A DNA stretch of 64,000 bases. It comes from an uncultured bacterium. Lineage in GTDB: Bacteria > Fermentibacterota > Fermentibacteria > Fermentibacterales > JCC-6. How positions within the stretch are numbered: the stretch's first letter is position 1; each line of letters starts with the position of its first letter. The stretch spans positions 1,963-65,962 of the forward strand of contig CBDUZS010000004.1 in NCBI GenBank assembly GCA_965371785.1, read 5' to 3'. This document shows, piece after piece, positions 1 through 27,146 of this stretch. The notes under the pieces are model-generated. The model searched no databases and was not told the DNA's origin. It saw nothing but the letters and a program-made list of their open reading frames with translations. Position numbers and translations under genes: made by a program.

Positions 1-1078
1 TCTCGTAACGATCAGGAAGAAAGCCAGATACGTTAGCCTGATCGATTGCATCGGATGCGGAATGTGCTACGAAGTGTGCCCGGTGTCACTGGAGAATGAG
101 TGGGAAGAATGCCTGATCGAAAAGAAAGCCATCTACATCCCATGTTCCGGAGCGCTTCCCAACGTACCGGTCATCGATTCGGAGCACTGTCTGCACCTGT
201 CCGGGTCGGAAGACTGCAACCTGTGTGTGGAATCCTGTGCTTTCGAGGCCATCAACCTGGATGACACTGATGAGCTGAGAGAGATAGGAGTCGGAGCAGT
301 CATACTGGCGACAGGCTCTGAGACCGTTGATCTGTCCCTGTTCCCCAATCTCGGGTACGGCAGACTTCCAGGGGTTTTCTCACCGCTCGAATTCGAGAGG
401 CTGTTCGCTTCCAACGGACCTACTCTTGGTGAAATAAGGCTTAGAAACTCAGAAGATGCTCCCCGCAGCGTTGCAATCATTCATTGCGTGGGGCGCACGA
501 TGCAGGAATACTGCTCTGCGGTCTGCTGCATGTACGCTTTCAAGTTCGTTCACTTCCTGAAGCAGAAGATCCCCGGAATCAGCATAAGTAACGTTTTCAC
601 GGATGTATGCGTTCCGGGAAAGAGCTATCAGACGTTCTACAGTGGCGTCTCACACGAAGACACGAAGATGCTGTACGCTTCCTCCATCGAGAACGTGCAC
701 GTCTCCGAGAGCGGTGACGGTCTGAAGGTGACCTATCCGGACGAATCGAGTGTAACCCGGGAACTCTCCGTCGACATGGTGATACTGACCGCAGCCATCG
801 TTCCCGACCCGGGACTTGTTGAACTCGCGAGTGTGGCAGGAGTCGAACTGGATTCTCACGGATTCGTCAGAACTGCAGCAAACACATCAGGGAGTACCGA
901 AACCTCCCGGAGGGGTGTATTCGCCGCGGGAACGGTCGAAGGGCCCAAGGATATCCAGATATCGGTCATCCAGGCGGAATCGGCAGCGGGAGAGGCAATG
1001 GCCATGCTGACTGAAGTAGCTGCAGGCAAGCTCGAAGCCGCTGATCACTCGGAAAGGATGGCGACTTGTCCGAAGTGA
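1..1078 (+). CDS. HdrA-like flavoprotein, 5'-truncated at window edge (FAD/thioredoxin-reductase-like region plus inserted 2x[4Fe-4S] ferredoxin part of a '1.5x HdrA')
   Basis: Frame 2 is open from nt 2 with no stop before the track's ATG at 62, so the gene starts upstream of the window. It carries the motifs CIGCGMCYEVCP and SEDCNLCVESCAF. IHCVGRT..CSAVCCMYAF parallels FIQCVGSRDE..CSSACCMFAI of the paralog at 5529..8588. It is collinear with roughly residues 110-440 of that paralog. Stop TGA at 1076-1078. Confidence 0.8.
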   Translation, partial: LVTIRKKARYVSLIDCIGCGMCYEVCPVSLENEWEECLIEKKAIYIPCSGALPNVPVIDSEHCLHLSGSEDCNLCVESCAFEAINLDDTDELREIGVGAVILATGSETVDLSLFPNLGYGRLPGVFSPLEFERLFASNGPTLGEIRLRNSEDAPRSVAIIHCVGRTMQEYCSAVCCMYAFKFVHFLKQKIPGISISNVFTDVCVPGKSYQTFYSGVSHEDTKMLYASSIENVHVSESGDGLKVTYPDESSVTRELSVDMVILTAAIVPDPGLVELASVAGVELDSHGFVRTAANTSGSTETSRRGVFAAGTVEGPKDIQISVIQAESAAGEAMAMLTEVAAGKLEAADHSERMATCPK

Positions 1079-1092
1079 GCCGGGACAGGCAG

Positions 1093-2778
1093 ATGAAGGC
1101 AAAAGTAGGGATCTACGTATGTGAATGCGGACCGAATATTTCGGAGAAGGTCGACATGGACCGCATTCTTGCCGAACTGTCCGAACTCGGTGATTACAAG
1201 GATATCGAACTCGTGGTGAAAAAATACGGCTTCCTCTGCTCAGGTCAGGGGCAGCAGTTCCTCGAGGAAGAGATAGCTGGCAACGGCTTCACGCATCTGG
1301 TCATCGGAGCCTGCTCCCCCAGGGATCATGACTCCACGTTCATGGGTGTATGCGGGAAGGCCGATCTCAATCCCTATCTCTACAAGCTCGTCAACATCCG
1401 AGAGCACTGCACCTGGGTCATCGACGATATCGAAAAGGCAACTGACAAAGCGATCACCTACATCCACGCAGGCATATCCAGAGTACTGCATCAGACAGAG
1501 CTTTTCGAGAAGCCGTTTGACATCAATCCTGACACTCTCGTGATCGGAGGCGGAATCACAGGTCTGGAAGCCGCCCTGTCCCTTTCAAGCGATTCCAGGA
1601 GAGTATTCCTCGTCGAGAAGGGCGACAGGCTGGGCGGCAGGGCCGGTTCTCTCGCGGGAATGTCTTTTGATCAGTCTGAGGGTGCCGATTTCATCTCCGA
1701 CAGGGTCGATTCAGTGAACGGAGACCGGAACATCACTGTCCTGCTGAACACTGAAGTCAGTAAGGTGATTGGTTTTCTGGGCAACTTCGAGATCGAGCTC
1801 TCCACGGGAGAAGGCGGCGGACCGAAAGACATCATGGTCGGTGCTATCGTAACCGCAACCGGCTGCATGCTGTACGACCCCTCTGAAGATGACCACTTCA
1901 GCTACTCCGGGTCAGACGAGGTGTATACATCAGAGAGTATGGGAACGATGTTCGCCGAAGAGGGCAGGATTGAACTCGCTTCAGGAGAACAACCTTCATC
2001 GGTTGCACTTGTTCACTGCGTGGGCCGGAACGACAGGAATTACTGCTCAGGCATCTGCTGCGGCTACATGATGAGACTGGCAGGTCTCTTCAGGCAGCAG
2101 TCCCCGGAAATTGAAATTACGGAGTTCTACCGGGATATCTGTCTTCCCGGCAAGAACGGTTCGGACACACTCCGAGCCGCCGAAAGTGCAGGAGTCTCAT
2201 TCGTGCGTGTCAAGGATATTCAACTGAACGGCACGTGCATTTCCTTCGAAGAAATCGATGGTCAGTCGAAGGATCGAACCTTCGACATGGTCGTCCTGGC
2301 GCCTGCGCTCATCCCGTCGACGGATGCTGGAGACCTTGCGGAACTCCTCGGGATCTCCCTCGATGAAACCGGTTTCTTTGTAGAAGCTCACAGGATGATC
2401 AATCCCTCTGGAACCTCAACCGATGGAGTTTTCGTTGCCGGGACAGCACACGGCCCCTCGGGTCTTGTCGATTCAATGCGTTTTGCCCGTGCAGCTGCGG
2501 GCCAGATACTCACACGGCTCATCCCGGGGGAGAAACTGATTCCAGAGGTAATGGTCTCCGAAGTGATGGAAGCCTACTGTACGGGTTGCGGAAATTGTCT
2601 TGATGTCTGCGTTTACGGTGCTATCTATGCCGATGACTCGAAGGGTGTTTCCGTCGTTAACGAAGCAGTCTGCAGGGGGTGCGGCAACTGTTTCGGGAGC
2701 TGTCCGTCCGGAGCACTCCGGACAAAGCACTTTACAAACGCACAGATCTACCGTGAAGTCGATGAGGCTCTGAGATGA
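1093..2778 (+). CDS. HdrA-like module (N-terminal 4-Cys domain, FAD-binding Rossmann fold, C-terminal 2x[4Fe-4S] ferredoxin); second half of a split 1.5x HdrA
   Basis: The start is the ATG at 1093, not the track's TTG at 1066. KVGIYVCECGPNISEKV matches the HdrA N-terminal domain motif RVGVFVCHCGINIAG. LVIGGGITGLEAAL is a dinucleotide-binding motif. HCVGRNDRNYCSGICCGYM and CTGCGNC..CRGCGNCFGSCPSGA are present. It aligns with the C-terminal ~560 aa of the fused paralog at 5529..8588. Confidence 0.8.
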   Translation: MKAKVGIYVCECGPNISEKVDMDRILAELSELGDYKDIELVVKKYGFLCSGQGQQFLEEEIAGNGFTHLVIGACSPRDHDSTFMGVCGKADLNPYLYKLVNIREHCTWVIDDIEKATDKAITYIHAGISRVLHQTELFEKPFDINPDTLVIGGGITGLEAALSLSSDSRRVFLVEKGDRLGGRAGSLAGMSFDQSEGADFISDRVDSVNGDRNITVLLNTEVSKVIGFLGNFEIELSTGEGGGPKDIMVGAIVTATGCMLYDPSEDDHFSYSGSDEVYTSESMGTMFAEEGRIELASGEQPSSVALVHCVGRNDRNYCSGICCGYMMRLAGLFRQQSPEIEITEFYRDICLPGKNGSDTLRAAESAGVSFVRVKDIQLNGTCISFEEIDGQSKDRTFDMVVLAPALIPSTDAGDLAELLGISLDETGFFVEAHRMINPSGTSTDGVFVAGTAHGPSGLVDSMRFARAAAGQILTRLIPGEKLIPEVMVSEVMEAYCTGCGNCLDVCVYGAIYADDSKGVSVVNEAVCRGCGNCFGSCPSGALRTKHFTNAQIYREVDEALR

Positions 2779-2797
2779 TTCCGGAAAGGACCGTCAG

Positions 2798-3958
2798 ATG
2801 ACCTCTTCCGAACAGTCCGGAGCAGTGCTGCAGGCCAACACAGGAACCTGCAATGCGATACTGGATTTTCTCAGAGAACTTATACGGAACGGACAGGTTG
2901 ATTCAGTGCTGCTCCCTGTGAGAGTACCCTCCGGTGATTCCTTTGCCTGGATTCTCACCGACGACGATTCGGTTCTTGCAGAAGCATCGCCGATTGCTCC
3001 GGTAATGCCGGTGCAGGGGGCGAGAGCCCTCCGGAGCCTGACCAGGAAGGGCGTGGGTAAGCAAAAGATCCTGGCCCTCATGAGACCCTGCGAGATCAGG
3101 GCAGCAATAGAACTCGTCAAACTGGGGCAGGTGCACACGGACAACCTCATACTTGCCAGCTTCGACTGCCCCGGCGCAATGCCCCTGAAGGATTACATGA
3201 ACGAACCGGGGGAAAGTGATCGAAATTTTTCGAAAATTCTGGAGACCGGCGAGCAGGACGGCCAAGTCAGACCAGTCTGTGAAACCTGTATTGAATTCTC
3301 CCGGGTGGGTTCGGACATCCATTTCTGTCACCTGGGGCTTGCTAATGAAAAAGTACTGGCTATACCCGGAAGCACCAGAGGTGAGGAACTGCTTGGCGGC
3401 TCTCTGTCCGACGTGTCTGGTGACGTTTCGCTATGGCAGAAGGAAGTGGACAGGCTCCGGAAGAACCGGTCTGCAGCTCTTGAGATTGCATTCGCTGCGA
3501 CGGGAGACGACATCAGGGGCTTTTCGGGAATGCAATCCGTTTTCGCTGACTGTATCGGCTGCCATAACTGCCAGAGTGCCTGCCCTATCTGCTATTGCAG
3601 GCTCTGCTACTTCGACTCGGAAACGGCTGGTCAGGATCCCGATGCTTTAATGGCTTCAGCCGCCAGGCGGGGAGGAATTTCCCTTCCGGTGGACAGAATC
3701 ATGTTCCATACCGGGAGAATGGCACACATGAGCCTCTCCTGCGTTTCATGCGGACAGTGTACGGATGTCTGTCCTGTTTCCATTCCCGTCGCAAATGTCT
3801 TCAGCTACGTAGCCGATCAAACGCAGCGAGCTTTCGAATACAGAGCAGGAGGAGACGCAGATGCTCCACTGCCTCTCCGGGAATTCAGGAAATCGGAACT
3901 GCAGGGAATTCAGGAGCTCGTCAAAGATGCCGGTCCGGAGGTTTCAACCGATGAGTAG
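2798..3958 (+). CDS. Fe-S flavoprotein subunit of the FlxB/FlxC - HydB/AsrA - FrhB-like family
   Basis: ATG at 2798. Cys clusters CIGCHNCQSACPICYC and CVSCGQCTDVCP. The N-terminal segment resembles the FrhB/FdhB N-domain (ILDFLRELIRNGQVDSVLLPV). It is a paralog of 3951..5039, 9001..9966 and 9972..11003. The family assignment comes from motif recognition only. Confidence 0.6.
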   Translation: MTSSEQSGAVLQANTGTCNAILDFLRELIRNGQVDSVLLPVRVPSGDSFAWILTDDDSVLAEASPIAPVMPVQGARALRSLTRKGVGKQKILALMRPCEIRAAIELVKLGQVHTDNLILASFDCPGAMPLKDYMNEPGESDRNFSKILETGEQDGQVRPVCETCIEFSRVGSDIHFCHLGLANEKVLAIPGSTRGEELLGGSLSDVSGDVSLWQKEVDRLRKNRSAALEIAFAATGDDIRGFSGMQSVFADCIGCHNCQSACPICYCRLCYFDSETAGQDPDALMASAARRGGISLPVDRIMFHTGRMAHMSLSCVSCGQCTDVCPVSIPVANVFSYVADQTQRAFEYRAGGDADAPLPLREFRKSELQGIQELVKDAGPEVSTDE

Positions 3959-5039
3959 CATTATCCTGGATATGGGAGTTTCAGAGGGAGTGACAGAACT
4001 CCTGCGCTACCTTCTCGACAGCGGCAAGGTGGACGGTGTCCTGACGACGAGGAGAATACCAGGTTCCTTTGACCTTGCTCTGATAACCGACTCATCGAAC
4101 CTCTCCGAAGCCGATCCTCTTGCACCGGTCATGACCGTGAACGCCGGACAGCCGCTGTCCTCAATCTCGTTCTCCGGCAAAAAGCTTGCAGCGGTTCTCA
4201 AACCCTGTGAGCTTCGGGCTTTTTGCGAGAGAGTGAAACGGGAGCAGGGCTCATTCGAGAATCTCCTGATAATCTCTTACACTTGCGGTGGTGTCTTCCC
4301 CCTGGAGAAGGTTGCGGCAGGTCAGATCGAAGAGCTGATGCCCGGGTACAGCGAAACCGTTTCGAAGGACGGAATACCTGACGGCACAAGAGACACGTGC
4401 AGGATCTGCGAGCATCCCATCCCGATCAATTCAGACATCACTGTATCAGTGGTAGGTGAAAGGGATCTCGACGGCAAATGCGTGATGTATCTCAATTCCG
4501 GGAAAGCTGAGGTTTACACAAAAGGTTTCAACGGAGAGCGGAACGGGCAGGAGTTCGATCCCGCCATACTGGAAAAGACTCTTGCCGCCAGGAGAAGCGG
4601 TAAGGAAGACCTGTTCGCTTCGATGAGCGAAACCAGCGGCGGACTCGATGGACTGCTGGACCTGTTCGGAAAATGTGTGGGATGTCACGGCTGCAGCAGA
4701 GTGTGCCCGATATGCTACTGTCTTCTCTGCGATTTCGAATCGTCCAATTTCGACTACAGCCTGTCCAACTGTGAAGAATACCTTTCGCGGAAAGGCGCGT
4801 TGCGGCTGCCTCCCGATACGATACTTTTTCATCTGGGCAGGCTGACTCACATGAGCTTCTCCTGCGTGGGGTGCGGCATGTGTTCAGACGTGTGCCCGGT
4901 GGACATTCCGGTTGCGACCGTTTTCAGTAAAACCGGGGAAAAGACGAGTGCGCTATTCGATTATCTGCCCGGAGGAGACATCGAAGAACCAGTCCCTGTC
5001 ATGGTGTTCAGGGAAGAGGAACTGTCAGATCTAGGATAA
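3951..5039 (+). CDS. Fe-S flavoprotein subunit, FlxB/FlxC - HydB/AsrA - FrhB-like family (tandem paralog)
   Basis: The start is ATG 3951 (MSSIILDMG) with GGAGG 9 nt upstream, overlapping the previous stop at 3956-3958. The track start at 3861 lies inside the upstream gene and is rejected. Motifs CVGCHGCSRVCPICYC and CVGCGMCSDVCPVDIP. The N-terminal VTELLRYLLDSGKVDGVL is FrhB-like. Confidence 0.6.
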   Translation: MSSIILDMGVSEGVTELLRYLLDSGKVDGVLTTRRIPGSFDLALITDSSNLSEADPLAPVMTVNAGQPLSSISFSGKKLAAVLKPCELRAFCERVKREQGSFENLLIISYTCGGVFPLEKVAAGQIEELMPGYSETVSKDGIPDGTRDTCRICEHPIPINSDITVSVVGERDLDGKCVMYLNSGKAEVYTKGFNGERNGQEFDPAILEKTLAARRSGKEDLFASMSETSGGLDGLLDLFGKCVGCHGCSRVCPICYCLLCDFESSNFDYSLSNCEEYLSRKGALRLPPDTILFHLGRLTHMSFSCVGCGMCSDVCPVDIPVATVFSKTGEKTSALFDYLPGGDIEEPVPVMVFREEELSDLG

Positions 5040-5073
5040 GCCGAGTGTACGGCGGATCCTGTAGGAGCCTGAT

Positions 5074-5499
5074 ATGAAGAAGGAATTCAACCCCAGGATA
5101 ACCAGTTTTCTGTGTAAGTGGTGTTCTTACACGGGAGCGGACCTGGCTGGTACCAGCAGACTGCAGTATCCGACATCGATCATCCCCCTGATGGTGATGT
5201 GCTCCAGCAGGGTCGATCCGATTTTTCTCATCAAGGCGTTCCTGAACGGTTCCGATGGTGTCATGCTCGGAGGTTGTCACCCTGGAGACTGTCACTACGA
5301 AACAGGCAACTACCATGCGAGAAGAAGATTTGCGATCGTGAAGAGTGTTTTCGAATCCCTCGGGCTCGAGGCTGACAGGCTGAAGTTATCCTGGATATCC
5401 GCATCGGAGGGGCCGAAATTCGCCCGGGTTGCCAACGAGTTCACCGAAGAGATCATCAGGCTCGGCGAGAATCCGACACGTAAGAACATTTTCCTGTGA
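5074..5499 (+). CDS. mvhD: MvhD/FlxD-type [2Fe-2S] electron-transfer subunit (methyl-viologen-reducing hydrogenase delta subunit family)
   Basis: Hallmark CKWCSYTGADLAG ... CSSRVDP ... GCHPGDCHY motifs. AGGAG RBS before ATG 5074. 141 aa. Confidence 0.85.
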   Translation: MKKEFNPRITSFLCKWCSYTGADLAGTSRLQYPTSIIPLMVMCSSRVDPIFLIKAFLNGSDGVMLGGCHPGDCHYETGNYHARRRFAIVKSVFESLGLEADRLKLSWISASEGPKFARVANEFTEEIIRLGENPTRKNIFL

Positions 5500-5528
5500 A
5501 AGAGGCTGACAGTGCGGCGGAGGAGCTG

Positions 5529-8500
5529 ATGGAAAACTGCAGTAACACGGTTCTCGTGCTTGGCGCCGGCATCGCGGGAATACAGGCTGCTCTGGATCTC
5601 GCGGAGATGGGAGCGGAGGTGCACCTCGTCGAGGATACACCCACTATTGGCGGAAGAATGCCGCAACTCGACAAGACGTTCCCGACAAATGACTGCTCCG
5701 TATGCATACTCGCTCCAAAGATGACCGAGTGCATCAGGCACCCGCTCATCAAGCTGCACGTGCTGTCCAGCCTCGAGGAGATATCGGGTTCGCCGGGGAA
5801 TTTCAGATGCAGGATAATCGAACGGGCAAAGTACGTTGATCCAGTCAAATGCGTATCCTGCGGCCTCTGTGAGGAGAAGTGCCCCGTAAAGCTCGATGAC
5901 GAATTCGATGCCGGACTCCGGAAAACGAAAGCCATCTCACGCTACTTCCTCCAGAGCGTTCCTTCCGAGTACACGATCAACCCCGAACATTGCCTCTACC
6001 TTACAAAGGGAGTCTGCAGACTCTGCGAAAAGGTCTGTCCGGCAGATGCGATAAACTTCGAGGATCAGGACAGGGAGATCGAAATTCTGGCTGGTGCAGT
6101 CATCCTCGCGACAGGTATCGATCCATTCGATCCAATTGGCTTCGGTCACTTCGGATACCACAGGTACAGCAACGTCGTAACCTCTCTCGAATTCGAGCGT
6201 ATGCTCTCCGCATCGGGCCCATTCGGCGGACACGTAGTGAAAGCGTCAGACGGCAAGCCGCCTAAAAGGCTGGCCTTCATCCAGTGTGTCGGTTCGAGGG
6301 ACGAGGGTATCGACAGGAACTACTGTTCGTCCGCCTGCTGCATGTTCGCCATAAAGCAGTCCATAATAGCAAGGGAACACAGCAGGGACCTGGAAGCAAC
6401 GATCTTCTACATGGACATAAGGGCTTTCGGCAAGGATTTCGACAGGTATTACGACAAGGCCGAGAAGCAGTACGGCGTAAGCTTCAAGAGATCCAGAGTA
6501 GCCGATATCATTGAGCTTCCGGACGGCAGCCTGAAACTGAAGTACACATTCGAGAACGGCGACATACAGTACGAAGTCTTCGACATGGTCGTTCTCTCGA
6601 TCGGTCTCGAACCCCGCAGTATCAACAGGAAACTGTCGAAGATCCTGGATGTGAAGCTGAACCGATTCGGGTTCTGCAGATCGAACACCTTCAGCCCTCT
6701 CAGCACCACCAGGGAGGGTGTGTTCGTATGCGGTGCAATGAACGGACCGAAAGATATCCCCGAGTCTGTGATATCCGCGTCAGGCGCTGTCGCGAATGCC
6801 GCCAGGTTCCTCGGGCTCGAAAGGCAGACCATTTCGACCGATGAAAAGACAATCGAAAAGGATGTTGCCGGGGAGAGACCCAGGGTCGGTGTGTTCGTGT
6901 GCCACTGCGGCATAAACATCGCTGGTGTCGTGGACGTGAAGGACGTAGCCGGTTACGCTGCCGGTCTCTACAATGTCGAACACTCCGAAGATGTAGTCTA
7001 CGCATGCTCTACCGATTGCCTGGAGACGATAAAGCAGCGTATCGAAGAGCATGATCTGAACAGGATTGTCGTCGCAGCCTGCACACCCAGGACCCACGAA
7101 CCTCTGTTCAGGGATACGATCAGTGAAGCCGGGCTGAACCCCTACCTGTTCGAGATGTCCAACATCCGTGACCAGTGCTCATGGGCGCACATGGACGAAC
7201 CAGAACTGGCAACGACAAAATCCAGGGATCTCGTGGAGATGGCTGTTGCCAAAGCGCGTGGTCTTGTTCCTTTGCAGAGACTTCCAATAGAGATCGATCC
7301 CGAAGCTCTTGTCATCGGCGGCGGGCTCTCCGGAATGACGGCGGCACTGGCCGTAGCGGATGCCGGGTACGAAGTCTTCCTGGTCGAGCGGGAAAACGTG
7401 CTCGGTGGCAATATGAGGGACATCTTCTTCAGTTTCGACGGGTCAGACCCCCAGCAGATTCTTACCGAAACCATCGAGAAAGTGCTTTCTCATGATAGGA
7501 TCAATGTATTTCTAGACAGCGAGATAACGGACATCTCCGGATACGTCGGGAACTTTCTCACCTCCCTCGTGAAGGGAGACGGATCGAGTGAAGAATTCAC
7601 CCATGGGGCAGTCATCGTAGCCACAGGCGGTGTACGCCACGAGACGGAGGATTACCTCTACGGTGAATCGAGTCGTGTGATCACTCAAATGGAATTCGAG
7701 CGGATGCTCCATGACAAGGCCTTTCCCGAAGGCCGGCTGCGGAATGTTGTAATGGTACAGTGCGTAGGTTCCAGAGAAGAAGGACGGATGTACTGCAGCC
7801 GTATCTGCTGTTCAAAGGCGGTAAAGAACGCCCTGGAACTGAAAAAGCGCAGGCGTAACACGAATATTTACTTCGCCTGCAGGGACATCAGAACCTATGG
7901 ATTCAGCGAGGAGTTCTATACGAGACTGCGGAACGAGGGAACACTGTTCTTCCGTTACACGCCCGAACGCAAGCCGCTCGTGAAGATGATCCAGCCGGAT
8001 GATCCGGACAGCAGGCTGAGGGTAACAGTCTTCGACTCCGTGCTGGAGGAGGAAGTCGTCATTGACGCCGACCTGCTGGTCCTGGCGACGGCTATCGACG
8101 CCCCGGAGGGGAACAGAAAGCTTGGTCAGATGCTCAAGGTACCGCTAAATTCCGACGGGCTGTTCCTGGAAGCACACGTGAAACTGCGCCCCGTTGACTT
8201 TGCCACCGAGGGTATTTTCGTCTGCGGGCTTGCCCACGGCCCCAAGGATATGAGTGAATCAATCGCCCAGTCCCTTGCGGCAGCCGCCAGGGCACTGACC
8301 TTCCTGTCGAAGAGGTCCATACTCGCCGAGGGTACCATTGCCCAGGTAAGGACTGACAGATGCTCCGGGTGCGGTTACTGCGAATCAGCATGCGCTTACT
8401 CAGCCATTGAAATCGATCCTGAAGAAAGCGTAGCCGTTATAAACGATGCACTTTGCAAGGGGTGTGGTGCGTGCGTCGCTTCATGCAGGTGTGGTGCTCT

Positions 8501-8588
8501 CGATCTTCGCGGATTCACCAACGATCAGCTCTTCTCGGTGTTCGATTCGCTTTCCATGGAGACTGTTGAGGGGAAAACAGCCGAATGA
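5529..8588 (+). CDS. hdrA: Fused 1.5x HdrA-like flavoprotein (FAD domain with DCSVC motif, inserted ferredoxin, then a second unit: 4-Cys N-domain, second FAD motif, C-terminal ferredoxin)
   Basis: The start is probably ATG 5529 (MENCSNT), with GGAGGAG 5 nt upstream. The track's GTG 5496 overlaps the mvhD stop and remains an alternative. Motifs in order: [19 protein letters not shown]; LDKTFPTNDCSVCILAPKM; CVSCGLCEEKCPV; FIQCVGSRDEG..CCMFAIKQ; RVGVFVCHCGINIAG; LVIGGGLSGMTAALAV; VQCVGSREEGRMYCSRICC; CSGCGYCESACAYSA..CKGCGACVASC. Confidence 0.85.
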   Translation: MENCSNTVLVLGAGIAGIQAALDLAEMGAEVHLVEDTPTIGGRMPQLDKTFPTNDCSVCILAPKMTECIRHPLIKLHVLSSLEEISGSPGNFRCRIIERAKYVDPVKCVSCGLCEEKCPVKLDDEFDAGLRKTKAISRYFLQSVPSEYTINPEHCLYLTKGVCRLCEKVCPADAINFEDQDREIEILAGAVILATGIDPFDPIGFGHFGYHRYSNVVTSLEFERMLSASGPFGGHVVKASDGKPPKRLAFIQCVGSRDEGIDRNYCSSACCMFAIKQSIIAREHSRDLEATIFYMDIRAFGKDFDRYYDKAEKQYGVSFKRSRVADIIELPDGSLKLKYTFENGDIQYEVFDMVVLSIGLEPRSINRKLSKILDVKLNRFGFCRSNTFSPLSTTREGVFVCGAMNGPKDIPESVISASGAVANAARFLGLERQTISTDEKTIEKDVAGERPRVGVFVCHCGINIAGVVDVKDVAGYAAGLYNVEHSEDVVYACSTDCLETIKQRIEEHDLNRIVVAACTPRTHEPLFRDTISEAGLNPYLFEMSNIRDQCSWAHMDEPELATTKSRDLVEMAVAKARGLVPLQRLPIEIDPEALVIGGGLSGMTAALAVADAGYEVFLVERENVLGGNMRDIFFSFDGSDPQQILTETIEKVLSHDRINVFLDSEITDISGYVGNFLTSLVKGDGSSEEFTHGAVIVATGGVRHETEDYLYGESSRVITQMEFERMLHDKAFPEGRLRNVVMVQCVGSREEGRMYCSRICCSKAVKNALELKKRRRNTNIYFACRDIRTYGFSEEFYTRLRNEGTLFFRYTPERKPLVKMIQPDDPDSRLRVTVFDSVLEEEVVIDADLLVLATAIDAPEGNRKLGQMLKVPLNSDGLFLEAHVKLRPVDFATEGIFVCGLAHGPKDMSESIAQSLAAAARALTFLSKRSILAEGTIAQVRTDRCSGCGYCESACAYSAIEIDPEESVAVINDALCKGCGACVASCRCGALDLRGFTNDQLFSVFDSLSMETVEGKTAE

Positions 8589-9004
8589 AAGAATGGCAGC
8601 CCAGAATACTCGCCATCCTGTGCAACTGGTGCTCGTATGCCGGCGCGGATCTTGCAGGTGTTTCGAGGATACAGTACCCCCCGAATATCCGGGTGGTGCG
8701 CGTTCCCTGTTCCGGGCGTGTAGACCCTCTTTTCGTGATGAAAAGCCTTTCTGCAGGATTCGACGGGGTGCTGATCTCCGGTTGCCATCCGGGTGATTGT
8801 CACTACATATCGGGCAACTACGTAGCGAGAAGGAAATTCGCCGTCCTGAACACAATCCTCGAATTCGTAGGGGTAGAGCCGGACCGGGTTCAGTTCTCCT
8901 GGATCTCTGCAGGAGAGGGTGAGCGATTCGCAGAAGTGGTGAGAAAGATAACCGAAGATGTCAGGGAACTGGGACCCTCGACCAGGCTGGTGAAGAAGGC
9001 ATGA
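8585..9004 (+). CDS. mvhD: MvhD/FlxD-type subunit
   Basis: CNWCSYAGADLAG, CSGRVDP and GCHPGDCHY motifs. The ATG overlaps the hdrA stop (ATGA). Confidence 0.85.
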   Translation: MKEWQPRILAILCNWCSYAGADLAGVSRIQYPPNIRVVRVPCSGRVDPLFVMKSLSAGFDGVLISGCHPGDCHYISGNYVARRKFAVLNTILEFVGVEPDRVQFSWISAGEGERFAEVVRKITEDVRELGPSTRLVKKA

Positions 9005-9966
9005 GTACTATGGAAGATCTTCGCAAAACCGTACGGGAGCTGCTCGCGGAGAATCGGATCGACCTTTTCATCGGATGGAAAAGCGGATCCCGCCCTCTGT
9101 CGGCAACACCTGTTTTCATCGACAACCCGGACGAGGCGGACGATCTCATTTTCGATATCACCTGCGGGAACAACCTGTCCGTTTTCTTCACGAAGGATAG
9201 AAAGCAGTTTACCGGGAAACGGATCGGAATCGCGGTAAAGGGCTGTGATGCAAGGTCACTTGTCCTGCATATCCTCGAGAAGCAGGTCGACCGCGAGAAC
9301 GTTGTAATAGTAGGAGTTCCATGCAATGGTGTGCTGGATCGAAAAAAAGTGCTCCGGAAGACTGACGGCAGGGAGATACTGGAACTGGAGGATTCAGGTT
9401 CGCAGATCGGTGTTACGGGCAACGGATTCGAACTCTCAATCAACCGCGAGGAGATACTGAGTTCGGCCTGTCTTACCTGTGTTCATCCCGACGCGAGGGA
9501 ATTCGATTTTTTCATGGGCGAGCCCAGGAAAGAAATTTCTGTAGAAGACAGGCTGAAAGAGGTGAGAGAATTCGAATCCCTGCCGGCTTCCCGGAGATGG
9601 GACCGGATGAAGCAGGAGTACGAGAAGTGCATACGCTGCTATGCCTGCAGGAATGTGTGCCCCTCATGCTACTGCAATGTGTGCTTCGTCGACCAGAACG
9701 ACCCGCGCTGGATAGGCAGCACCTGCGACTTCTCGGACACCATGATTTTTCATCTGATAAGAAACCTGCATGTGGCCGGGCGATGCGTTGAATGCGGCGC
9801 CTGCGAGAGAGCCTGTCCGATGGATATCAACCTCCTCCTTCTCAACAGGAAGGTAGCAGCCGAAGTGGAAACAAGATTCGGCGACGTAGCCGGTCTCGAT
9901 ATCGGCGGGAAACCGGCAATGGCTGACTACCGGGAAGACGAGAAGCAGGATTTCATAATGGGATAG
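9001..9966 (+). CDS. Fe-S subunit, FlxB/FlxC - HydB/AsrA-like family
   Basis: CIRCYACRNVCPSCYCNVC and CVECGACERACP clusters. The ATG overlaps the mvhD stop. It is a paralog of 2798..3958 and 9972..11003. Confidence 0.6.
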   Translation: MSTMEDLRKTVRELLAENRIDLFIGWKSGSRPLSATPVFIDNPDEADDLIFDITCGNNLSVFFTKDRKQFTGKRIGIAVKGCDARSLVLHILEKQVDRENVVIVGVPCNGVLDRKKVLRKTDGREILELEDSGSQIGVTGNGFELSINREEILSSACLTCVHPDAREFDFFMGEPRKEISVEDRLKEVREFESLPASRRWDRMKQEYEKCIRCYACRNVCPSCYCNVCFVDQNDPRWIGSTCDFSDTMIFHLIRNLHVAGRCVECGACERACPMDINLLLLNRKVAAEVETRFGDVAGLDIGGKPAMADYREDEKQDFIMG

Positions 9967-9971
9967 GGAGA

Positions 9972-11003
9972 ATGACAAGGCTGGACAAGAGTGATTTCGG
10001 GGATTTCATCCGTGAACTGGCAGAAGGCTACGACGTCTACGCTCCCGGCCTTCGTGGGAGTACAACGATCTTCGTTCCCGTTGGACCGGATGATGATATC
10101 GTCCAGGACTGTACGGTAACGGTCATGTCCCCGAAGAACGTGTTCTTTCCACAGGCCGAAGTGCTTTTCGAGTACGAGAATGGCGAGGTCAGAACGATAC
10201 CGGCCAGTACCAGACCGCTGGCAGTCTGGGGAATGAGAGGCTGCGATGTCCGCAGTCTTCACCTCCTGGACAAAGTCATGGGAGACGCAATACAGATGCC
10301 CGGGGACAAGAGATTCCAGGATCCCTACTGGAAGGAGAGGTTCGACGATTCCATCATCTTCTGTACCGCATGCAACGAGCCTCTTTCGACCTGCTTCTGC
10401 AACTGGTTCGGCGGCGGACCGCACAGCGGGACCGGAGCGGACGTCTTCGTGATCGACATCGGTGAAGCCTGGCTGATGGAACCTATGAGCGAGAAGGGTA
10501 CGGAACTCATCGCAGGGATTTCCTGCTTGAAAGACGTATCGGATGACGACCTGACAAGGGCTTCGGAGCTGGCTGCCAGGGCGGAATCTCTGATGACCGC
10601 TCCGGATGGTATCGAAGGCATCGACACGCACCTGACAGAATTGTTCGATGCCGAAGTGTGGGATAAGATCAGCGCCAAGTGTGTGACCTGCGGTGCATGC
10701 ACATTCTGCTGTCCCACCTGCCACTGCTTCGATCTCCAGGATGAGGGCAGCGGCGGCAGAGGCAAGAGGATCCGCATCTGGGACTCATGCATGTTCCCCA
10801 TATTCACGGCAGAAGCTTCTGGGCACAATCCCAGGGCTCTTTCGAAGGAACGTGTAAGGCAGAGGATCATGCACAAATTCAGTTACTACCCGGAAAGGTA
10901 CGGAGAGATGCTCTGCACTGGCTGCGGACGATGCATCTCCGCCTGTCCCGTCAACTTCGATGTAAGGGATGTGCTGAGAGAACTCCAGGAATGCGAGAGT
11001 TGA
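9972..11003 (+). CDS. Fe-S subunit, HydB/AsrA (sulfhydrogenase beta / anaerobic sulfite reductase A)-like, FlxB/FlxC-type
   Basis: CVTCGACTFCCPTCHCF and CTGCGRCISACPVNFDV motifs are typical of the HydB/AsrA family. AGGGAG RBS before ATG 9972. Confidence 0.65.
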   Translation: MTRLDKSDFGDFIRELAEGYDVYAPGLRGSTTIFVPVGPDDDIVQDCTVTVMSPKNVFFPQAEVLFEYENGEVRTIPASTRPLAVWGMRGCDVRSLHLLDKVMGDAIQMPGDKRFQDPYWKERFDDSIIFCTACNEPLSTCFCNWFGGGPHSGTGADVFVIDIGEAWLMEPMSEKGTELIAGISCLKDVSDDDLTRASELAARAESLMTAPDGIEGIDTHLTELFDAEVWDKISAKCVTCGACTFCCPTCHCFDLQDEGSGGRGKRIRIWDSCMFPIFTAEASGHNPRALSKERVRQRIMHKFSYYPERYGEMLCTGCGRCISACPVNFDVRDVLRELQECES

Positions 11004-11845
11004 GGATAGTCGTGTCGAATACCTACATTCCGCTGCAGATGAGAGTCGAGAAAATCGTCTCGGAAGATTCTGACAGGATGCTTCGCACCTATGACCTGAC
11101 CTTCCTGGACGAAGCGGAACGTAAGGCGTTCAACTACCTGCCCGGGCAGTTCTGCGAACTGTCAATACTCGGCAAGGGTGAATCACCTTTCGGGATAGCG
11201 TCCTCCCCTACTGAAGACGGCTATCTCCGTTTCACAGTGAGCAGGACCGGTACCGTAACCAACGAGATACATTACCTCAGAGTGGGTGATACCGTCGGGA
11301 TGAGAGGACCTCTCGGCAACTGGTATCCTGTGGAGGAGCTCAAGGGCGCTAACGTGTTGATAGTTGGTGGCGGGTTTGCTTTTACAACCCTGAGGTCACT
11401 TCTGGTGTACCTGCTGGAAAACAGGAGTGATTACGGAGACATAACCGTTGTTTACGGAGCGAGAACACCCGATCTCCTCATTTACAAGGACGAACTAGCC
11501 CTCTGGAAAGAGAGAGATGACCTCGAGCTGCATCTCACTATTGACAGACCGGTGGAAGGCTGGGACGGCAAGACCGGATTCGTACCGACGGTTACCGAAG
11601 AGATCGCACCCGACCGGGAAAATACGTTCGCCATCGTATGCGGACCTCCGATTATGATCAAGTTCACACTGCCGGTGCTCACAGCACTTGGATTCCCCGA
11701 CGACAGGATCTACACTTCCCTCGAACGGCGCATGAAGTGCGGCATAGGCAAGTGCGGGAGGTGTAACATCGGGTCGAAATACATCTGCATCGACGGGCCC
11801 GTGTTCTCGATGGCCGAGCTCAGGATGATACCCGAGCCTGTCTAG
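10991..11845 (+). CDS. FAD/NAD(P)H-binding oxidoreductase with C-terminal [2Fe-2S], FlxA / HydG / AsrB-like
   Basis: The start is ATG 10991 (MRELRIV), overlapping the previous stop. The track's upstream Met at 10787 is out of context. FNR-like fold motifs: YLPGQFCEL, VLIVGGGFAFTTL, CGPPIMI. The C-terminal CGIGKCGRCNIG is a 2Fe-2S motif. Confidence 0.7.
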   Translation: MRELRIVVSNTYIPLQMRVEKIVSEDSDRMLRTYDLTFLDEAERKAFNYLPGQFCELSILGKGESPFGIASSPTEDGYLRFTVSRTGTVTNEIHYLRVGDTVGMRGPLGNWYPVEELKGANVLIVGGGFAFTTLRSLLVYLLENRSDYGDITVVYGARTPDLLIYKDELALWKERDDLELHLTIDRPVEGWDGKTGFVPTVTEEIAPDRENTFAIVCGPPIMIKFTLPVLTALGFPDDRIYTSLERRMKCGIGKCGRCNIGSKYICIDGPVFSMAELRMIPEPV

Positions 11846-12331
11846 ATGGAGACTATAGAGATGAAGAAGATAATCCTCGCCGAGAAAGACCCGAACTTCA
11901 AGAATCAAATTGCATCACAGCCAGGTGCGGAGTCCTTCATGAAGTGCTTCACCTGCGGCACCTGCACGGCTACCTGCCCCGTGGCAGAGGTGCATGATGA
12001 GTACGATCCGAGAAAGATAATAAGGATGGCCATACTGGGTATGCGTGAGGAGGTCCTCTCCTCCGACATTCTCTGGATGTGTTCGAGATGCTACGCTTGC
12101 GCTGCCCTCTGCCCTCAGAACGTGAAGTTCACCGATGTCATCAGCATTCTCAGAGATATGGCTGTGAAAGAGGGATACGTTCCAGCAGAACGGCTCGAGA
12201 AGGCCAGGGAACTCGACAGAATCGTGCAGAGCCTTCGATGCAGGCTCATAGAACAGAAACTGCATCCTGACGACGAGAACAGAGCTGAAATCAAACGCGT
12301 GCTCGAGGGTGAACTGGAGGAATCATGGTAG
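11846..12331 (+). CDS. HdrC-like 2x[4Fe-4S] ferredoxin-type subunit
   Basis: Two CxxCxxCxxxCP motifs (CFTCGTCTATCP and CSRCYACAALCP). 161 aa. Immediately upstream of the giant HdrA. Confidence 0.6.
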   Translation: METIEMKKIILAEKDPNFKNQIASQPGAESFMKCFTCGTCTATCPVAEVHDEYDPRKIIRMAILGMREEVLSSDILWMCSRCYACAALCPQNVKFTDVISILRDMAVKEGYVPAERLEKARELDRIVQSLRCRLIEQKLHPDDENRAEIKRVLEGELEESW

Positions 12332-12377
12332 TTCTGCTTGATGCATTCCCCTGTTTGACACGGCGGGGCAGCTGAAC

Positions 12378-16859: not shown

Positions 16860-16941
16860 CGGCAACAAGCCCTCACTTCTCACGGCTTCCATGTAGGAAT
16901 GACGACGCTATACACTCCCACTGCCGGGAAGGAGTAAATCC

Positions 16942-17637
16942 ATGAGCAGTCAACAAGAGTTTGCCTTGCCGAAGTGCGCTTACTGCAAGGAGGAAAGGAA
17001 GGTCTGTACAAATCCTGCTGGAACCGGTCCCGTCTGGTGCCCGACTCTTACTCTGGAGGTTCTGGTCAGCAAAGCTTTCGAGGAGTACGATGACCGCGGC
17101 ACCATGGAGCTCGCTAGAGCTGCCACCGTACAGGAAGGTGAATGCTACATCGGCAGGTCGAGGGGTGCCGAAGCCGCTCCCTACCCCGTAAAGCCCAGGG
17201 CTCTGGAGATAATCGAACTCGCCGGGAAAATGGGCTACAGCAGAATAGGCATTGCCTTCTGCACGGGGCTGATGGAGGAGGCAAGGCTCTTCAGTGAAAT
17301 TCTCATATCAGCTGGTCTGGAGGCTGTTTCCGTCTGCTGCAAGGTGGGAAGAACTCCGAAGGAGAGAATAGGTGTTCTCGACGATCAGAAGATCCGTATC
17401 GGGGAGTTCGAGGCGATGTGCAGCCCGGTTGCCCAGGCTCGCATTCTCGATCGGAGCGGGACGGACCTCAACGTAGTCATCGGGCTTTGCGTCGGCCATG
17501 ATTCGCTGTTCTTCAAATACAGCTCAGTCCCGGTAACGGTGCTCGTAGCGAAGGACAGGGTTACGGGCCACAATCCCGCAGCGGTTCTGTACACCGCTCA
17601 CAGCTACTACAGGAACCTGTTGAAGGGACCTTTCTGA
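16942..17637 (+). CDS. Cys-rich metal-binding protein, DUF1847-like
   Basis: 231 aa. CAYCKEERKVC..WCP and LCVGHD motifs. AGGAG RBS before ATG 16942. The DUF assignment is from memory of the family signature. Confidence 0.45.
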   Translation: MSSQQEFALPKCAYCKEERKVCTNPAGTGPVWCPTLTLEVLVSKAFEEYDDRGTMELARAATVQEGECYIGRSRGAEAAPYPVKPRALEIIELAGKMGYSRIGIAFCTGLMEEARLFSEILISAGLEAVSVCCKVGRTPKERIGVLDDQKIRIGEFEAMCSPVAQARILDRSGTDLNVVIGLCVGHDSLFFKYSSVPVTVLVAKDRVTGHNPAAVLYTAHSYYRNLLKGPF

Positions 17638-17828
17638 TCCTTGACCTCCCTGAACAATCTACAGAACGTTGGCATTGCAAACGGGGCCGATTTTTGCACG
17701 GTGTTGTGGCAATCGTGCTACTCACCTTCTACGTTGCCGGATAATTATACTAGCCCCTTAAAACAGCTGAAGAGGAGACGGACATAGGCGGACAGAACAG
17801 AGTACTGCTGTTTCTGCTCATATTCATC

Positions 17829-19037: not shown

Positions 19038-19064
19038 GTTGTTGTTTCTCGGGAGAAGAAAACC

Positions 19065-19451
19065 ATGAAGAGAAAAGAACTGATTCTCCACCTGATCGGT
19101 GGAATATCGAATTACATGCTGGAGAACAATCCTTCAAGGCTGGTCATTTCACTTCATCAGGAGGAGGATGGGCTACACCTCTCCGCTTTCGATGACAGGG
19201 CTCACAGCGATGAGGAAATAGAGAGAATAGACCTGGCCTTGAACAGTCAGAAAAGACCAGAACTGGCGGGCTATTACGGGGCCATGACCGGCCACGACTT
19301 GCTGGGGGCTTCCCGGCTTAATCTGCTCGGCTGGCAGGTGAAACACTGTGATGTATCGAGAACCTCCAACGGCATTAAGGTAGACATCTGGCTGGGCGGA
19401 GATCGGTTTGAAAGCGATCGGTTTACGCTCCCGGTCAAGGACCAGCAATAG
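19065..19451 (+). CDS. Hypothetical protein (128 aa)
   Basis: GGAGAAG RBS before ATG 19065. No recognisable motif. Confidence 0.45.
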   Translation: MKRKELILHLIGGISNYMLENNPSRLVISLHQEEDGLHLSAFDDRAHSDEEIERIDLALNSQKRPELAGYYGAMTGHDLLGASRLNLLGWQVKHCDVSRTSNGIKVDIWLGGDRFESDRFTLPVKDQQ

Positions 19452-27136: not shown

Positions 27137-27146
27137 GGCCAGCTCC

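Follow-up and report, generated by a model that had tools for sequence, protein, structure and literature searches.

The window analysed here (64,000 nt of contig CBDUZS010000004.1 from an uncultured Fermentibacterota bacterium) opens with two adjacent HdrA-like genes which together resemble a single-chain HdrA encoded shortly downstream. This raises the question of whether the pair is one broken gene or a genuine two-gene protein, and of how it relates to the other HdrA copies. The window proved to contain several old, diverged paralogues of an asymmetric two-lobed HdrA, occurring in two-gene (..1078 + 1093..2778), single-chain (5529..8588 and 12378..16859) and selenocysteine (57152..60340, likewise one chain) forms.

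One layout, encoded in one or two genes

The genes at the start of the window are:

1..1078, + strand: half I of the two-gene HdrA (A6-like), an FAD domain of thioredoxin-reductase type into which a 2x[4Fe-4S] ferredoxin is inserted
1093..2778, + strand: half II of the two-gene HdrA (A12-like), in which an N-terminal [4Fe-4S] domain is followed by a second FAD domain and a C-terminal 2x[4Fe-4S] ferredoxin
2798..3958, + strand: FdhB-like Fe-S protein, 386 aa (ferredoxin domains only in Pfam)
3927..5039, + strand: FrhB/FdhB-like flavo-Fe-S protein, 370 aa (weak FrhB_FdhB_N and FrhB_FdhB_C matches)
5074..5499, + strand: MvhD/FlpD [2Fe-2S] adaptor protein (PF02662, E = 1.6e-49)
5529..8588, + strand: single-chain (type II) HdrA with Cys, 1019 aa (three stretches match 5odc_A)

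Gene 1 is cut by the window edge, with its last 358 codons inside; the complete gene (450 aa) starts 275 nt left of the window and was taken from an independent assembly (L001:1033-2385). In this form it corresponds to residues 6-428 of the 5529..8588 protein (35% identity, E = 5e-79), and gene 2 to residues 450-1006 (30% identity, E = 8e-84), while a three-way alignment extends the end-to-end collinearity to the TGA-containing copy at 57152..60340. The collinearity claimed by the first-pass annotation is thus genuine and far above chance, and the unusual domain order it described is common to all copies. Some details required correction, i.e., the FAD/DCSxC motif ascribed to gene 1 exists (as ECSTC in L001) but lies outside the window and must have been extrapolated, and the length of 1030 aa given for the fused chain belongs to a GTG start at 5496. 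Moreover, a further copy of the same layout, not counted among the three originally listed, was found:

12378..16859, + strand: fourth two-lobed HdrA, HdrL-like, 1493 aa

This copy has Cys at position 197 (DCAMC) and carries a GltD/NfnB-like NAD(P)H module of ~470 aa inside its inserted-ferredoxin domain (residues 169-557 are covered by Pfam Fer4_20 and Pyr_redox_2). Its identity to the 5529..8588 protein is 48% across an 850-aa stretch and 46% across the first 168 aa.

The two halves are complementary. Half I has neither the N-terminal domain nor the C-terminal ferredoxin, and every half I retains the Cys197-type CxxC (ECSTC in the split pair), E356, K409 and the four-Cys cluster motif (CxGx..CSxxCC). 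Every half II lacks Cys197 and possesses both the N-terminal domain and the C-terminal ferredoxin, and the second FAD domain in half II of the split pair has no ferredoxin insert. In the window's half II, Arg replaces K409 and E356 is lost; since both residues are reported to be necessary for a bifurcating flavin, this second FAD site may not bifurcate.

Comparison with PDB structures indicated that both lobes of the fused chain are HdrA-like, with no solved structure of a two-lobed HdrA among the matches. An AF2 model of the 5529..8588 protein (pLDDT 82) predicts that the chain folds as one compact body (pTM 0.84), the loop carrying Cys59 (residues 39-56) being modelled with low confidence. 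Full-length homologues of this protein number more than 100, at about 1011-1057 aa.

The two-gene form is genuine and ancient

At the junction, the stop codon of gene 1 (TGA, 1076-1078) is separated by a 14-nt spacer from the ATG of gene 2 (1093) with a change from frame 2 to frame 1, as had been described, and this ATG agrees with the starts of its orthologues (MKAKVG.YVCECGPNI). An assembly or sequencing frameshift in one truly fused gene would be conceivable at this point, as both frames are open over 1045..1075 and a one-base change would join the ORFs. For that very reason, however, such a fusion, which the first-pass annotation had regarded as the sign of an assembly error, is uninformative, and it is the comparative evidence that decides. 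Despite its low coverage (3.7x), the L001 assembly is 99.89% identical over 11 kb, with 12 SNPs, no gaps and an identical junction, and relatives at 96% and 91% identity end half I at the identical residue (...SERMATCPK). Halves I and II are separate ORFs, in an unchanged 11-gene order, in 20 other loci from at least six phyla (Fermentibacterota, Krumholzibacteriota, Delongbacteria, Marinimicrobia, Cloacimonadota and a 'Bacteroidales' MAG), and their junctions vary (4-nt overlaps, a 12-nt gap, a 55-nt gap). In addition, stand-alone homologues of half I form a family of more than 100 members of 419-450 aa. The frameshift reading is thereby effectively refuted.

A recent, lineage-specific fission of a duplicated neighbouring fused gene, possibly on its way to becoming a pseudogene, might instead be suspected from the fused copy of like layout just 2.7 kb downstream and from the residues lost in half II. 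Nevertheless, the split and fused copies are only 32-35% identical, all Fe-S and FAD motifs of the split pair are intact, and the two-gene form is spread over the phyla listed above. The phylogeny of the copies, which the first-pass annotation had proposed, further revealed that the split family and the fused family are both recovered as monophyletic in 100/100 bootstraps, and that they cover one common set of phyla with parallel branching; the split or fusion event must therefore be ancient, and a recent fission is scarcely credible. The initial interpretation of a fission or fusion rather than a sequencing error thus stands as far as the reality of the split is concerned, but the event was neither local nor recent.

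Nor do the copies constitute three parallel versions of one module in a single neighbourhood, as had been proposed. Since the three copies are only 32-44% identical to each other and each resides in its own conserved gene cluster with a differing partner module, they are distant paralogues rather than parallel duplicates. The selenocysteine copy is located 49 kb away from the other two.

The split pair and the fused-Cys gene share an 11-gene cluster

Across the 20 loci, the split pair and the fused-Cys gene are constant neighbours in one conserved cluster. The split pair is preceded by an MvhD gene and followed by the two FdhB/FrhB-like genes and another MvhD. The PDB relatives of the 2798..3958 protein (9t1s_M, 8rvu_E and 7bkb_E) are beta subunits of F420 formate dehydrogenases in Hdr complexes, and the 3927..5039 protein matches 9t1s_M over its full length (E = 1e-36). 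Downstream of the fused-Cys gene follow:

8585..9004, + strand: MvhD/FlpD (PF02662, E = 1e-54)
9010..9966, + strand: FlxC-like Fe-S protein, a relative of the C-terminal FdhB region
9972..11003, + strand: FlxB-like Fe-S protein (Fer4_22), related to AsrA and the sulfhydrogenase beta subunit (NCBIfam ShyB, HydB and AsrA matches, all under cut-off)
11012..11845, + strand: FlxA-like NAD(P)H/FAD/[2Fe-2S] protein (FAD_binding_6, NAD_binding_1, DHODB_Fe-S_bind), related to AsrB and the sulfhydrogenase gamma subunit
11846..12331, + strand: HdrC-like 2x[4Fe-4S] protein (Fer4_8, Fer4_17)

The earlier statement that Flx-type genes and MvhD follow each copy is consequently accurate for the fused-Cys copy, but does not apply as a whole to the split pair or the selenocysteine copy. 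An HdrB-type CCG subunit is absent from this cluster.

The unvarying gene order in 20 loci, together with the intergenic gaps of 0-46 nt and the lack of any terminator signal above chance within the window's cluster, might suggest that the split and fused-Cys units assemble into a single large complex instead of forming two enzymes. Bifurcation or confurcation in two stages would then be conceivable, sulfur-linked in many lineages, given that TusA, DsrE, rhodanese and YeeE-like genes lie directly upstream of the cluster in 5/5 non-Fermentibacterota loci, and type II HdrA clusters have been proposed to support two successive bifurcations (PMC12054007). However, co-transcription does not imply physical association, the presence of a separate MvhD and a separate FdhB-like partner for each unit also fits two enzymes, and these sulfur genes were found neither in the window nor in any Fermentibacterota locus examined. 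A single complex is therefore possible but rather unlikely.

The distal copy is a selenoprotein candidate

The distal part of the window contains:

54443..57148, + strand: 2-oxoacid:ferredoxin oxidoreductase (subunits alpha, beta and gamma), immediately preceding the selenocysteine copy
57152..60340, + strand: single-chain (type II) HdrA with selenocysteine, 1062 codons (UGA 57371-57373 at the Cys197 position)
57394..57411, + strand: putative bacterial SECIS hairpin (GGAUGCC-GGGC-GGCAUCC), starting 20 nt past the UGA
60337..60804, + strand: MvhD/FlpD
60801..61955, + strand: HdrD-like protein with an HdrC-type ferredoxin and two HdrB-type CCG domains
61985..64000, + strand: canonical-order HdrA fused to MvhD (type Ia, HdrA2-like), running past the window end

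The association of the oxidoreductase with this copy recurs in three loci (L009, L010 and L011). The in-frame TGA aligns with the second Cys of DCSxC, i.e., Cys197 of PDB 5ODC chain A. If it were a true stop, 57152..57373 and 57392..60340 would be two genes or a pseudogene, and gene callers do break the gene at this codon in nearly all records. Sec-insertion genes and tRNA-Sec are also missing from the window, and no Rfam SECIS family gave a match. On the other hand, the codon coincides exactly with a cluster-ligating Cys, and the piece upstream of it (66-80 aa) contains the GxGxxG motif, which is indispensable for FAD binding, and keeps its reading frame in three phyla, the UGA and its context being common to Fermentibacteria, Phycisphaerales and Acidobacteriota. 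The best 120 homologues all begin after the UGA, so that they cover no more than 92% of the query; 116 have MDAGRH or MDVGRH as their first residues, seven codons past it. The hairpin is present at 7/7 Sec sites in 4 organisms, where the synonymous choices GAU, CAU and NGG are invariant, contrary to codon bias (joint background probability 0.02-0.07 per site). Moreover, the HdrA at 61985..64000 has an in-frame UGA at the equivalent position (62594-62596, with a hairpin at 62617-62634), pointing to a second selenocysteine HdrA that had been overlooked, and NCBI gene models of 820-823 aa continue through the corresponding UGA in the neighbouring HdrA-MvhD gene. Finally, CxxU-type HdrA is an established family of selenoproteins (PMC13188914; PMC2702500). 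A true stop is thus very unlikely. The position of the TGA on Cys197, its conservation across phyla and the conserved hairpin make selenocysteine in the 57152..60340 candidate well supported, in line with the original proposal.

Proposed working of the asymmetric units

Canonical HdrA is a homodimer in which Cys197 of one protomer serves as the fourth ligand to the [4Fe-4S] cluster of the other's N-terminal domain. In the copies described here, the dimer would instead consist of two unlike halves. Half I would contribute its FAD domain, Cys197 (or Sec) and the inserted two-cluster ferredoxin as the presumed exit to ferredoxin; half II would contribute the N-terminal cluster domain, the second FAD domain and the C-terminal two-cluster ferredoxin, the latter being the presumed docking site of MvhD and entry point. 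The sequences themselves establish the domain order, which domains each half has or lacks, their conservation, the genuineness and age of the split, and the placement and conservation of the UGA. Bifurcation, the direction in which electrons flow and the ligation of a cluster by both halves are inferred by homology to solved Hdr complexes.

Each unit has its own MvhD and a different partner module, i.e., the two FdhB-like flavo-Fe-S proteins for the split pair, the Flx-like NAD(P)H module for the fused-Cys unit, the built-in GltD/NfnB-like NAD(P)H module for the HdrL-like unit, and the 2-oxoacid:ferredoxin oxidoreductase, the HdrD-like disulfide-reductase subunit and a further HdrA-MvhD for the Sec unit. 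Because of these separate adaptors and partners, the units are most likely distinct flavin-based cores of electron bifurcation or confurcation, which connect ferredoxin with different donors and acceptors, rather than redundant copies. Overall, old asymmetric HdrA paralogues acting as such distinct cores, with their halves forming an unlike dimer, constitute the best explanation of the locus (with a probability of roughly 80%).

Comparison with known systems

The architecture is uncharacterised biochemically, as the first-pass annotation had it, but it has been published and is not new as a design: tandem and fused heterodimeric HdrA have been described (PMC9012536), and type II HdrA is a fusion of classes A6 and A12 (PMC12054007). 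These forms are known from ANME, methanogenic archaea and the MetFV-HdrABC-MvhD complex of Moorella thermoacetica (PMC9012536; PMC12054007). Type II HdrA and the window copies have in common a pair of FAD domains of thioredoxin-reductase type, the placement of Cys197 and the N-terminal cluster domain on opposite halves, a single inserted and a single C-terminal ferredoxin, associated MvhD and FdhB-like genes, and both fused and tandem two-gene forms. The window examples differ in being bacterial (Fermentibacterota, with others in further candidate phyla), in the adjoining of split and fused forms in one conserved operon, and in the use of Sec by one copy; the molybdopterin protein and HdrBC of the published archaeal clusters are both missing from the split/fused-Cys cluster.

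Canonical HdrA (HdrABC-MvhAGD, PDB 5ODC; Fdh-Hdr and Elp-Hdr, 7BKB and 8RVU) shares domains and cofactor motifs with the window copies at 36-44% identity per domain, likewise with MvhD and FdhB-type partners encoded nearby. It is, however, a homodimer of ~650-aa chains that each contain all four domains, whereas here each accessory domain occurs once per pair, and all NCBIfam HdrA models score under cut-off. The genes past 5529..8588 resemble FlxABCD-HdrABC ('Flox-Hdr') of Desulfovibrio vulgaris in comprising an MvhD-type FlxD, two Fe-S proteins and an AsrB/HydG-type NAD(P)H/FAD protein, but their order is reversed, only an HdrC-like gene (no HdrB) is present and HdrA is two-lobed.

HdrL of Desulfobacterium autotrophicum (PMC2702500) is a partly Sec-containing HdrA/glutamate-synthase fusion, and 12378..16859 similarly joins HdrA domains to a GltD-type NAD(P)H module, a likeness at the level of the published description; the window protein differs in that its insert interrupts an HdrA with two lobes. 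Both genomes hold several Sec/Cys Hdr paralogues with adjoining MvhD genes. The sHdr system of sulfur oxidisers has TusA, DsrE and rhodanese as partners, and TusA/DsrE/rhodanese/YeeE-like genes immediately precede the orthologous cluster in five phyla. In contrast to sHdr, the window's cluster lacks HdrB1/B2, HdrC1/C2, LbpA and the sulfur genes, and sHdrA (6TJR) is a 340-aa single-domain protein, unlike the two-lobed HdrA described here.

Gene structure of the split pair

The first-pass annotation had proposed that one unusual HdrA architecture is present three times in the window, i.e., as two adjacent genes (the split pair), as a single chain (fused-Cys) and as a chain with selenocysteine (fused-Sec), and that the split copy reflects a fission or fusion event instead of a sequencing error. 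The genes involved are as follows.

Window start to 1078: gene 1 of the split pair (half I)
1093..2778: gene 2 of the split pair (half II)
5529..8588: fused-Cys HdrA
57152..60340: fused-Sec HdrA (third copy)

Gene 1 is open in reading frame 2 from the window start, which lies inside the gene, to a TGA at 1076-1078, while gene 2 starts with an ATG at 1093 in frame 1 and ends at 2778 (561-aa ORF), in agreement with the 14-nt spacer and the change of frame originally described. A 12.4-kb contig of another assembly (L001; ENA ERZ25748748) spans window positions 1..11117 at 99.89% identity (12 substitutions, 0 gaps) and reaches 1307 nt further left. In this contig, the full gene 1 (450 aa) begins 275 nt to the left of the window, with an MvhD gene before it. 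The complete gene 1 carries a GxGxxG FAD motif, an ECSTC motif, a two-cluster ferredoxin insert and a CxG...CSxxCC cluster motif, and gene 2 carries a Cys-rich HdrA N-terminal-type domain, a second FAD motif and a C-terminal two-cluster ferredoxin. The FAD/CxxC region attributed to the split copy thus exists, as seen in L001, although it falls outside the window.

That a single-base change at the junction would fuse both ORFs had been put forward as the mark of an assembly error. Both frames are open over 1045..1075, so the ORFs can be joined, yet this is uninformative on whether an error occurred. Comparative evidence points to a genuine split: the junction in L001 is identical to that in the window despite differences at 12 other sites, and gene 1 proteins from other samples (96% and 91% identity) are also 450 aa long and share the same ...SERMATCPK end, with substitutions nearby. 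Moreover, most of the best 120 homologues of gene 1 stand alone as proteins of 419-450 aa (53-96% identity), and the two halves are encoded by separate ORFs in 20 other loci having enough flanking DNA. These loci come from Ca. Aegiribacteria, Fermentibacteria, Sabulitectum, Krumholzibacteriota, Delongbacteria, Marinimicrobia, Cloacimonadota and one "Bacteroidales" MAG; the named genomes nearest to the window are Aegiribacteria and Fermentibacteria (70-73% identity). Judged from these sequence comparisons, the two-gene split is genuine and the artefact reading is rejected. Programmed frameshifting at the gene 1/gene 2 junction was rejected as well, since no slippery heptamer is present in 1045..1075 and the junction geometries of orthologous loci (4-nt overlaps, a 12-nt gap or a 55-nt gap) are unrelated.

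In one Ca. Sabulitectum MAG (L023:1800-3540), half II is interrupted, giving ORFs of 129 and 456 aa, through a frameshift, pseudogenisation or an assembly error at this site. A search for exact copies of the 561-aa gene 2 product gave no match; one with the MvhD product did.

Relations among the copies

The gene 1 product aligned with residues 6-428 of the fused-Cys protein (35% identity, E = 5e-79), and that of gene 2 with residues 450-1006 (30% identity, E = 8e-84). The fused-Sec gene contains one in-frame TGA (57371-57373) and could be aligned over its whole length with both the split pair and fused-Cys. This end-to-end alignment bears out the proposed collinearity of the three copies; the length of 1030 aa given for fused-Cys is incorrect, as 5529..8588 encodes 1019 aa.

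Pairwise amino acid identity of the three copies, per half
Split vs. fused-Cys: N half 35%, C half 32%
Split vs. fused-Sec: N half 35%, C half 33%
Fused-Cys vs. fused-Sec: N half 44%, C half 42%

At these distances, the split, fused-Cys and fused-Sec forms are distant paralogues. A phylogeny of the copies, suggested together with the original observation, was built by neighbour-joining (one tree per half, 100 bootstraps). The split and fused-Cys families were each monophyletic (100/100 bootstraps), and for each half the branching inside the split family parallels that inside the fused-Cys family. The fission or fusion is therefore ancient, its direction not being given by the trees. The order among the three families differed by half, with split grouping with fused-Cys for the N half (85%) and fused-Cys with fused-Sec for the C half (49%). 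Because neighbour-joining could not order the families, we make no claim on fission versus fusion. The full-length homologues of fused-Cys form a family of more than 100 members, which are mostly 1000-1057 aa long (54-99% identity) and come from the same phyla as the split family.

Two-lobed layout and conserved motifs

Compared with 5ODC, the solved canonical HdrA, residues 7-375 of the fused protein correspond to the FAD domain with its inserted ferredoxin (145-510), residues 449-602 to the N-terminal domain (2-155), and residues 868-1011 to the last part of the FAD domain together with the C-terminal ferredoxin. In each copy, both halves carry the TrxR-type FAD signature (Pfam Pyr_redox_2, FAD_oxidored and NAD_binding_8 matches), and each copy has the pair of TrxR-type FAD domains, on a single chain or encoded by tandem genes, that defines type II/heterodimeric HdrA. 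The [4Fe-4S] cluster motif of the TrxR domain (CxGxRD..CSxxCC) is likewise present in both halves of all copies and orthologues.

The second Cys of the DCSxC motif aligns with Cys197 of 5ODC. Every half I among the window copies and about 45 homologues keeps Cys197, E356, K409 and the four-Cys motif, and every half II in the same set lacks Cys197 and has the N-terminal domain and C-terminal ferredoxin. In the fused copies, half II also keeps E356 and K409, which adjoin the bifurcating FAD (5ODC numbering; PMC12054007). The split half II of the window (1093..2778, about residues 290 and 337) has Arg for K409 and no Glu at E356, while 4 of 5 orthologues keep both residues. With these substitutions, the split pair may be unable to bifurcate at its second flavin site in the window's lineage.

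The AF2 model of fused-Cys had a pLDDT of 82 and a pTM of 0.84, with a pLDDT below 50 for the CxxC-bearing loop. Foldseek with this model retrieved canonical HdrA only (query-normalised TM-score of at most 0.46; TMt of 0.92 to the HdrA core 8rwn_A), and no solved single-chain equivalent of the fused HdrA was found in this search.

Probable selenocysteine in the third copy and a neighbouring HdrA

The third copy has an in-frame UGA at the second-Cys position of the CxxC motif, and its reading frame is conserved before and after this codon. HdrA proteins with CxxU are recognised as a selenoprotein family (PMC13188914; PMC2702500). The best 120 homologues (70-95% identity) all cover only 92% of the query, and 116 of them start with MDAGRH or MDVGRH, seven codons past the UGA. 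In three comparison genomes, a 66-80 aa ORF with the FAD motif is followed by a TGA at the Cys197 position and then by the main ORF. Current MAG annotations split the Sec gene into such 66-80 aa and about 980 aa pieces, and label all of them "heterodisulfide reductase".

A hairpin (GGAUGCC-GGUC-GGCAUCC) starts 20 nt after the UGA at all seven sites compared (four organisms, three HdrA types). Its stem is 7 bp and its loop GGUC or GGGC; one G-C to G-U change and no true compensatory change were seen among the seven sites, and the overlapping peptide is also conserved. The synonymous choices that maintain the hairpin (GAU, CAU and NGG) are fixed at 7/7 sites against codon bias, with a joint background probability of 0.02-0.07 per site. 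Because the seven sites are related by descent, this fixation is support and not proof. Scanning the complete window against Rfam at gathering thresholds gave no match, hence no curated SECIS model stands behind the hairpin, and z-scores for folding of the entire 70-nt segment downstream of each UGA (+0.26 and -1.0) were not significant, so that only the seven-site comparison is informative. No tRNA is present in the window and no sel genes (selA, selB, selD) were seen in it.

At 61985..>64000 lies a canonical-order HdrA fused to MvhD (HdrA2-like), with a second TGA (62594-62596) at the Cys197 position and a hairpin of the same kind downstream of it (62617-62634). A minus-strand ORF (62807..63916) overlapping this gene has no Pfam match and is probably spurious. 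In a Phycisphaerales genome (CP070744.1), a Sec version of an HdrL-like protein (L010:11090-15598), called as 70 + 1425 aa around its TGA, is placed between a Sec type II HdrA and MvhD.

The 11-gene cluster and its partner modules

The split pair and fused-Cys belong to an 11-gene cluster with the same order in all comparison loci. It starts with MvhD, followed by half I and half II (about 430 and about 561 aa), an FdhB-like Fe-S protein of about 385 aa, an FrhB/FdhB-like one of about 365 aa, a second MvhD, the fused HdrA of about 1015 aa, a third MvhD, and FlxC-like, FlxB-like and FlxA-like proteins. The window also contains the following genes.

2798..3958, 3927..5039 and 9010..9966: three Fe-S proteins, all FdhB relatives
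9972..11845: NAD(P)H-linked module like AsrA/AsrB and sulfhydrogenase beta/gamma subunits, all scores being below family cut-offs
11846..12331: HdrC-like gene, preceding 12378..16859
12378..16859: fourth copy of the layout (1493 aa), overlooked in the first-pass annotation
16942..17637 and 17829..19037: DUF1847 and DUF1576 proteins, directly downstream of the HdrL-like gene (12378..16859)
23462..28925 (minus) and 30619..32957 (minus): 1244-aa fusion of a 2Fe-2S domain, a GltD-like domain and a molybdopterin (formate-dehydrogenase-like) domain, adjoining a NuoF-like flavoprotein, and also an NfnAB-like pair; further candidate bifurcating modules in the same 64 kb
33091..36303 (plus), 36403..39384 (minus) and 41505..43862 (minus): three large PPDK_N (PEP-utilising, ATP-binding) paralogues, two of which also have a response-regulator receiver domain
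60801..61955: the sole CCG protein of the window

FdhB is the flavo-Fe-S subunit that passes electrons via MvhD to HdrA in the solved Fdh-Hdr and Elp-Hdr complexes. Each copy had been described as followed by Flx-type genes; this holds for fused-Cys only (8585..11845), and the partner modules of the other copies differ. The fourth copy (48% identity to fused-Cys over 850 aa) has a GltD/NfnB-like NAD(P)H module of about 470 aa within its inserted-ferredoxin domain. Upstream of the Sec copy is a 2-oxoacid:ferredoxin oxidoreductase, and downstream of it come MvhD, an HdrD-like protein with two CCG domains and a further HdrA, a neighbourhood kept in Fermentibacteria, Phycisphaerales and Acidobacteriota. 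Between the upstream MvhD and 16859, intergenic gaps measure 0-46 nt, making one long operon over this stretch a plausible prediction. A promoter/terminator scan of 1..19500 yielded fewer sites than shuffled controls and was uninformative.

A possible link to sulfur metabolism

Directly upstream of the 11-gene cluster, genes for TusA, DsrE, rhodanese, a porin and a YeeE-like Sulf_transp protein were found in 5/5 loci from outside Fermentibacterota; none of them occurs in any Fermentibacterota locus or anywhere in the window.

Upstream sulfur genes in the comparison loci
L004:207-2800
L007:265-5351
L008:3325-3927
L026:3594-9441
L027:7624-8976

We tentatively propose, at a probability of roughly 0.15, that the 11-gene cluster might encode a single HdrB-less supercomplex with two asymmetric HdrA cores in series, which in many phyla would couple NAD(P)H and ferredoxin to sulfane-sulfur reduction or oxidation (via TusA, DsrE and rhodanese). 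If true, this would be an undescribed sulfur-linked bifurcating enzyme type across Fermentibacterota, Krumholzibacteriota, Delongbacteria, Marinimicrobia, Cloacimonadota and others; the gene neighbourhood, on which this idea is based, leaves room for such an enzyme. A literature search, with subscription journals outside its scope, found no paper describing the 11-gene cluster in these phyla.

Novelty is modest. It lies in how these proteins are distributed among bacteria, in a two-gene and a single-chain form being invariably paired in one operon, in a type II HdrA with Sec that occurs across several phyla, and in the sulfur-transferase genes directly upstream of the cluster in five other phyla. 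Type II HdrA proteins are biochemically among the least understood cores of flavin-based electron bifurcation, and one operon and genome here offer a natural comparison of the same design in the form of two genes, one chain, a chain with a built-in NAD(P)H module and a Sec variant. This might guide the choice of expression constructs and the reading of MAG annotations, a practical and incremental value that overturns nothing.

Comparison with known Hdr systems

The NCBIfam models for bona fide CoB-CoM heterodisulfide reductase HdrA (NF041778, NF041891 and NF040770; whole-protein score above the curated cut-off) were not reached, with best scores of 1001.6 bits vs. 1100 for NF040770 and 760.9 bits vs. 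1400 for NF041778, and 344-388 bits for the split halves. No Qmo model (QmoA/QmoB) was among the NCBIfam matches of either half at E <= 1e-5. The sHdr hallmarks (HdrB1/B2, HdrC1/C2, short sHdrA and lipoate-binding LbpA) are absent among the cluster genes, and sHdr 6tjr_A is only a distant TrxR-domain relative of the window HdrA.

In FlxABCD-HdrABC, FlxA (NAD(P)H/FAD), FlxB, FlxC and FlxD (MvhD) lie beside HdrA, an arrangement matched by fused-Cys only (8585..11845). That system has both HdrB and HdrC in its cluster, whereas here only the HdrC-like gene (11846..12331) is present and no CCG domain occurs in 1..17700. The fourth copy is of the same type as HdrL of Desulfobacterium autotrophicum.

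The design of the window proteins is already published. Chadwick et al. described the same complementary pattern in tandem and fused HdrA of ANME archaea and in Moorella HdrA. They took it to represent a built-in heterodimer, since in the solved complex the N-domain cluster of one protomer is ligated by Cys197 from its partner (PMC9012536). A 2025 survey named the fused form type II HdrA, arising from fusion of class A6, which has neither the N-terminal domain nor the C-terminal ferredoxin, with class A12, with MvhD and FdhB genes nearby, and reported that no type II HdrA had been studied experimentally or biochemically (PMC12054007). Genomes rich in Hdr paralogues, including Sec and Cys variants, are also known (PMC2702500). 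The window copies share with type II/heterodimeric HdrA the complementary distribution of Cys197 and the N-terminal domain, and the putative cluster ligation across halves would follow the same scheme.
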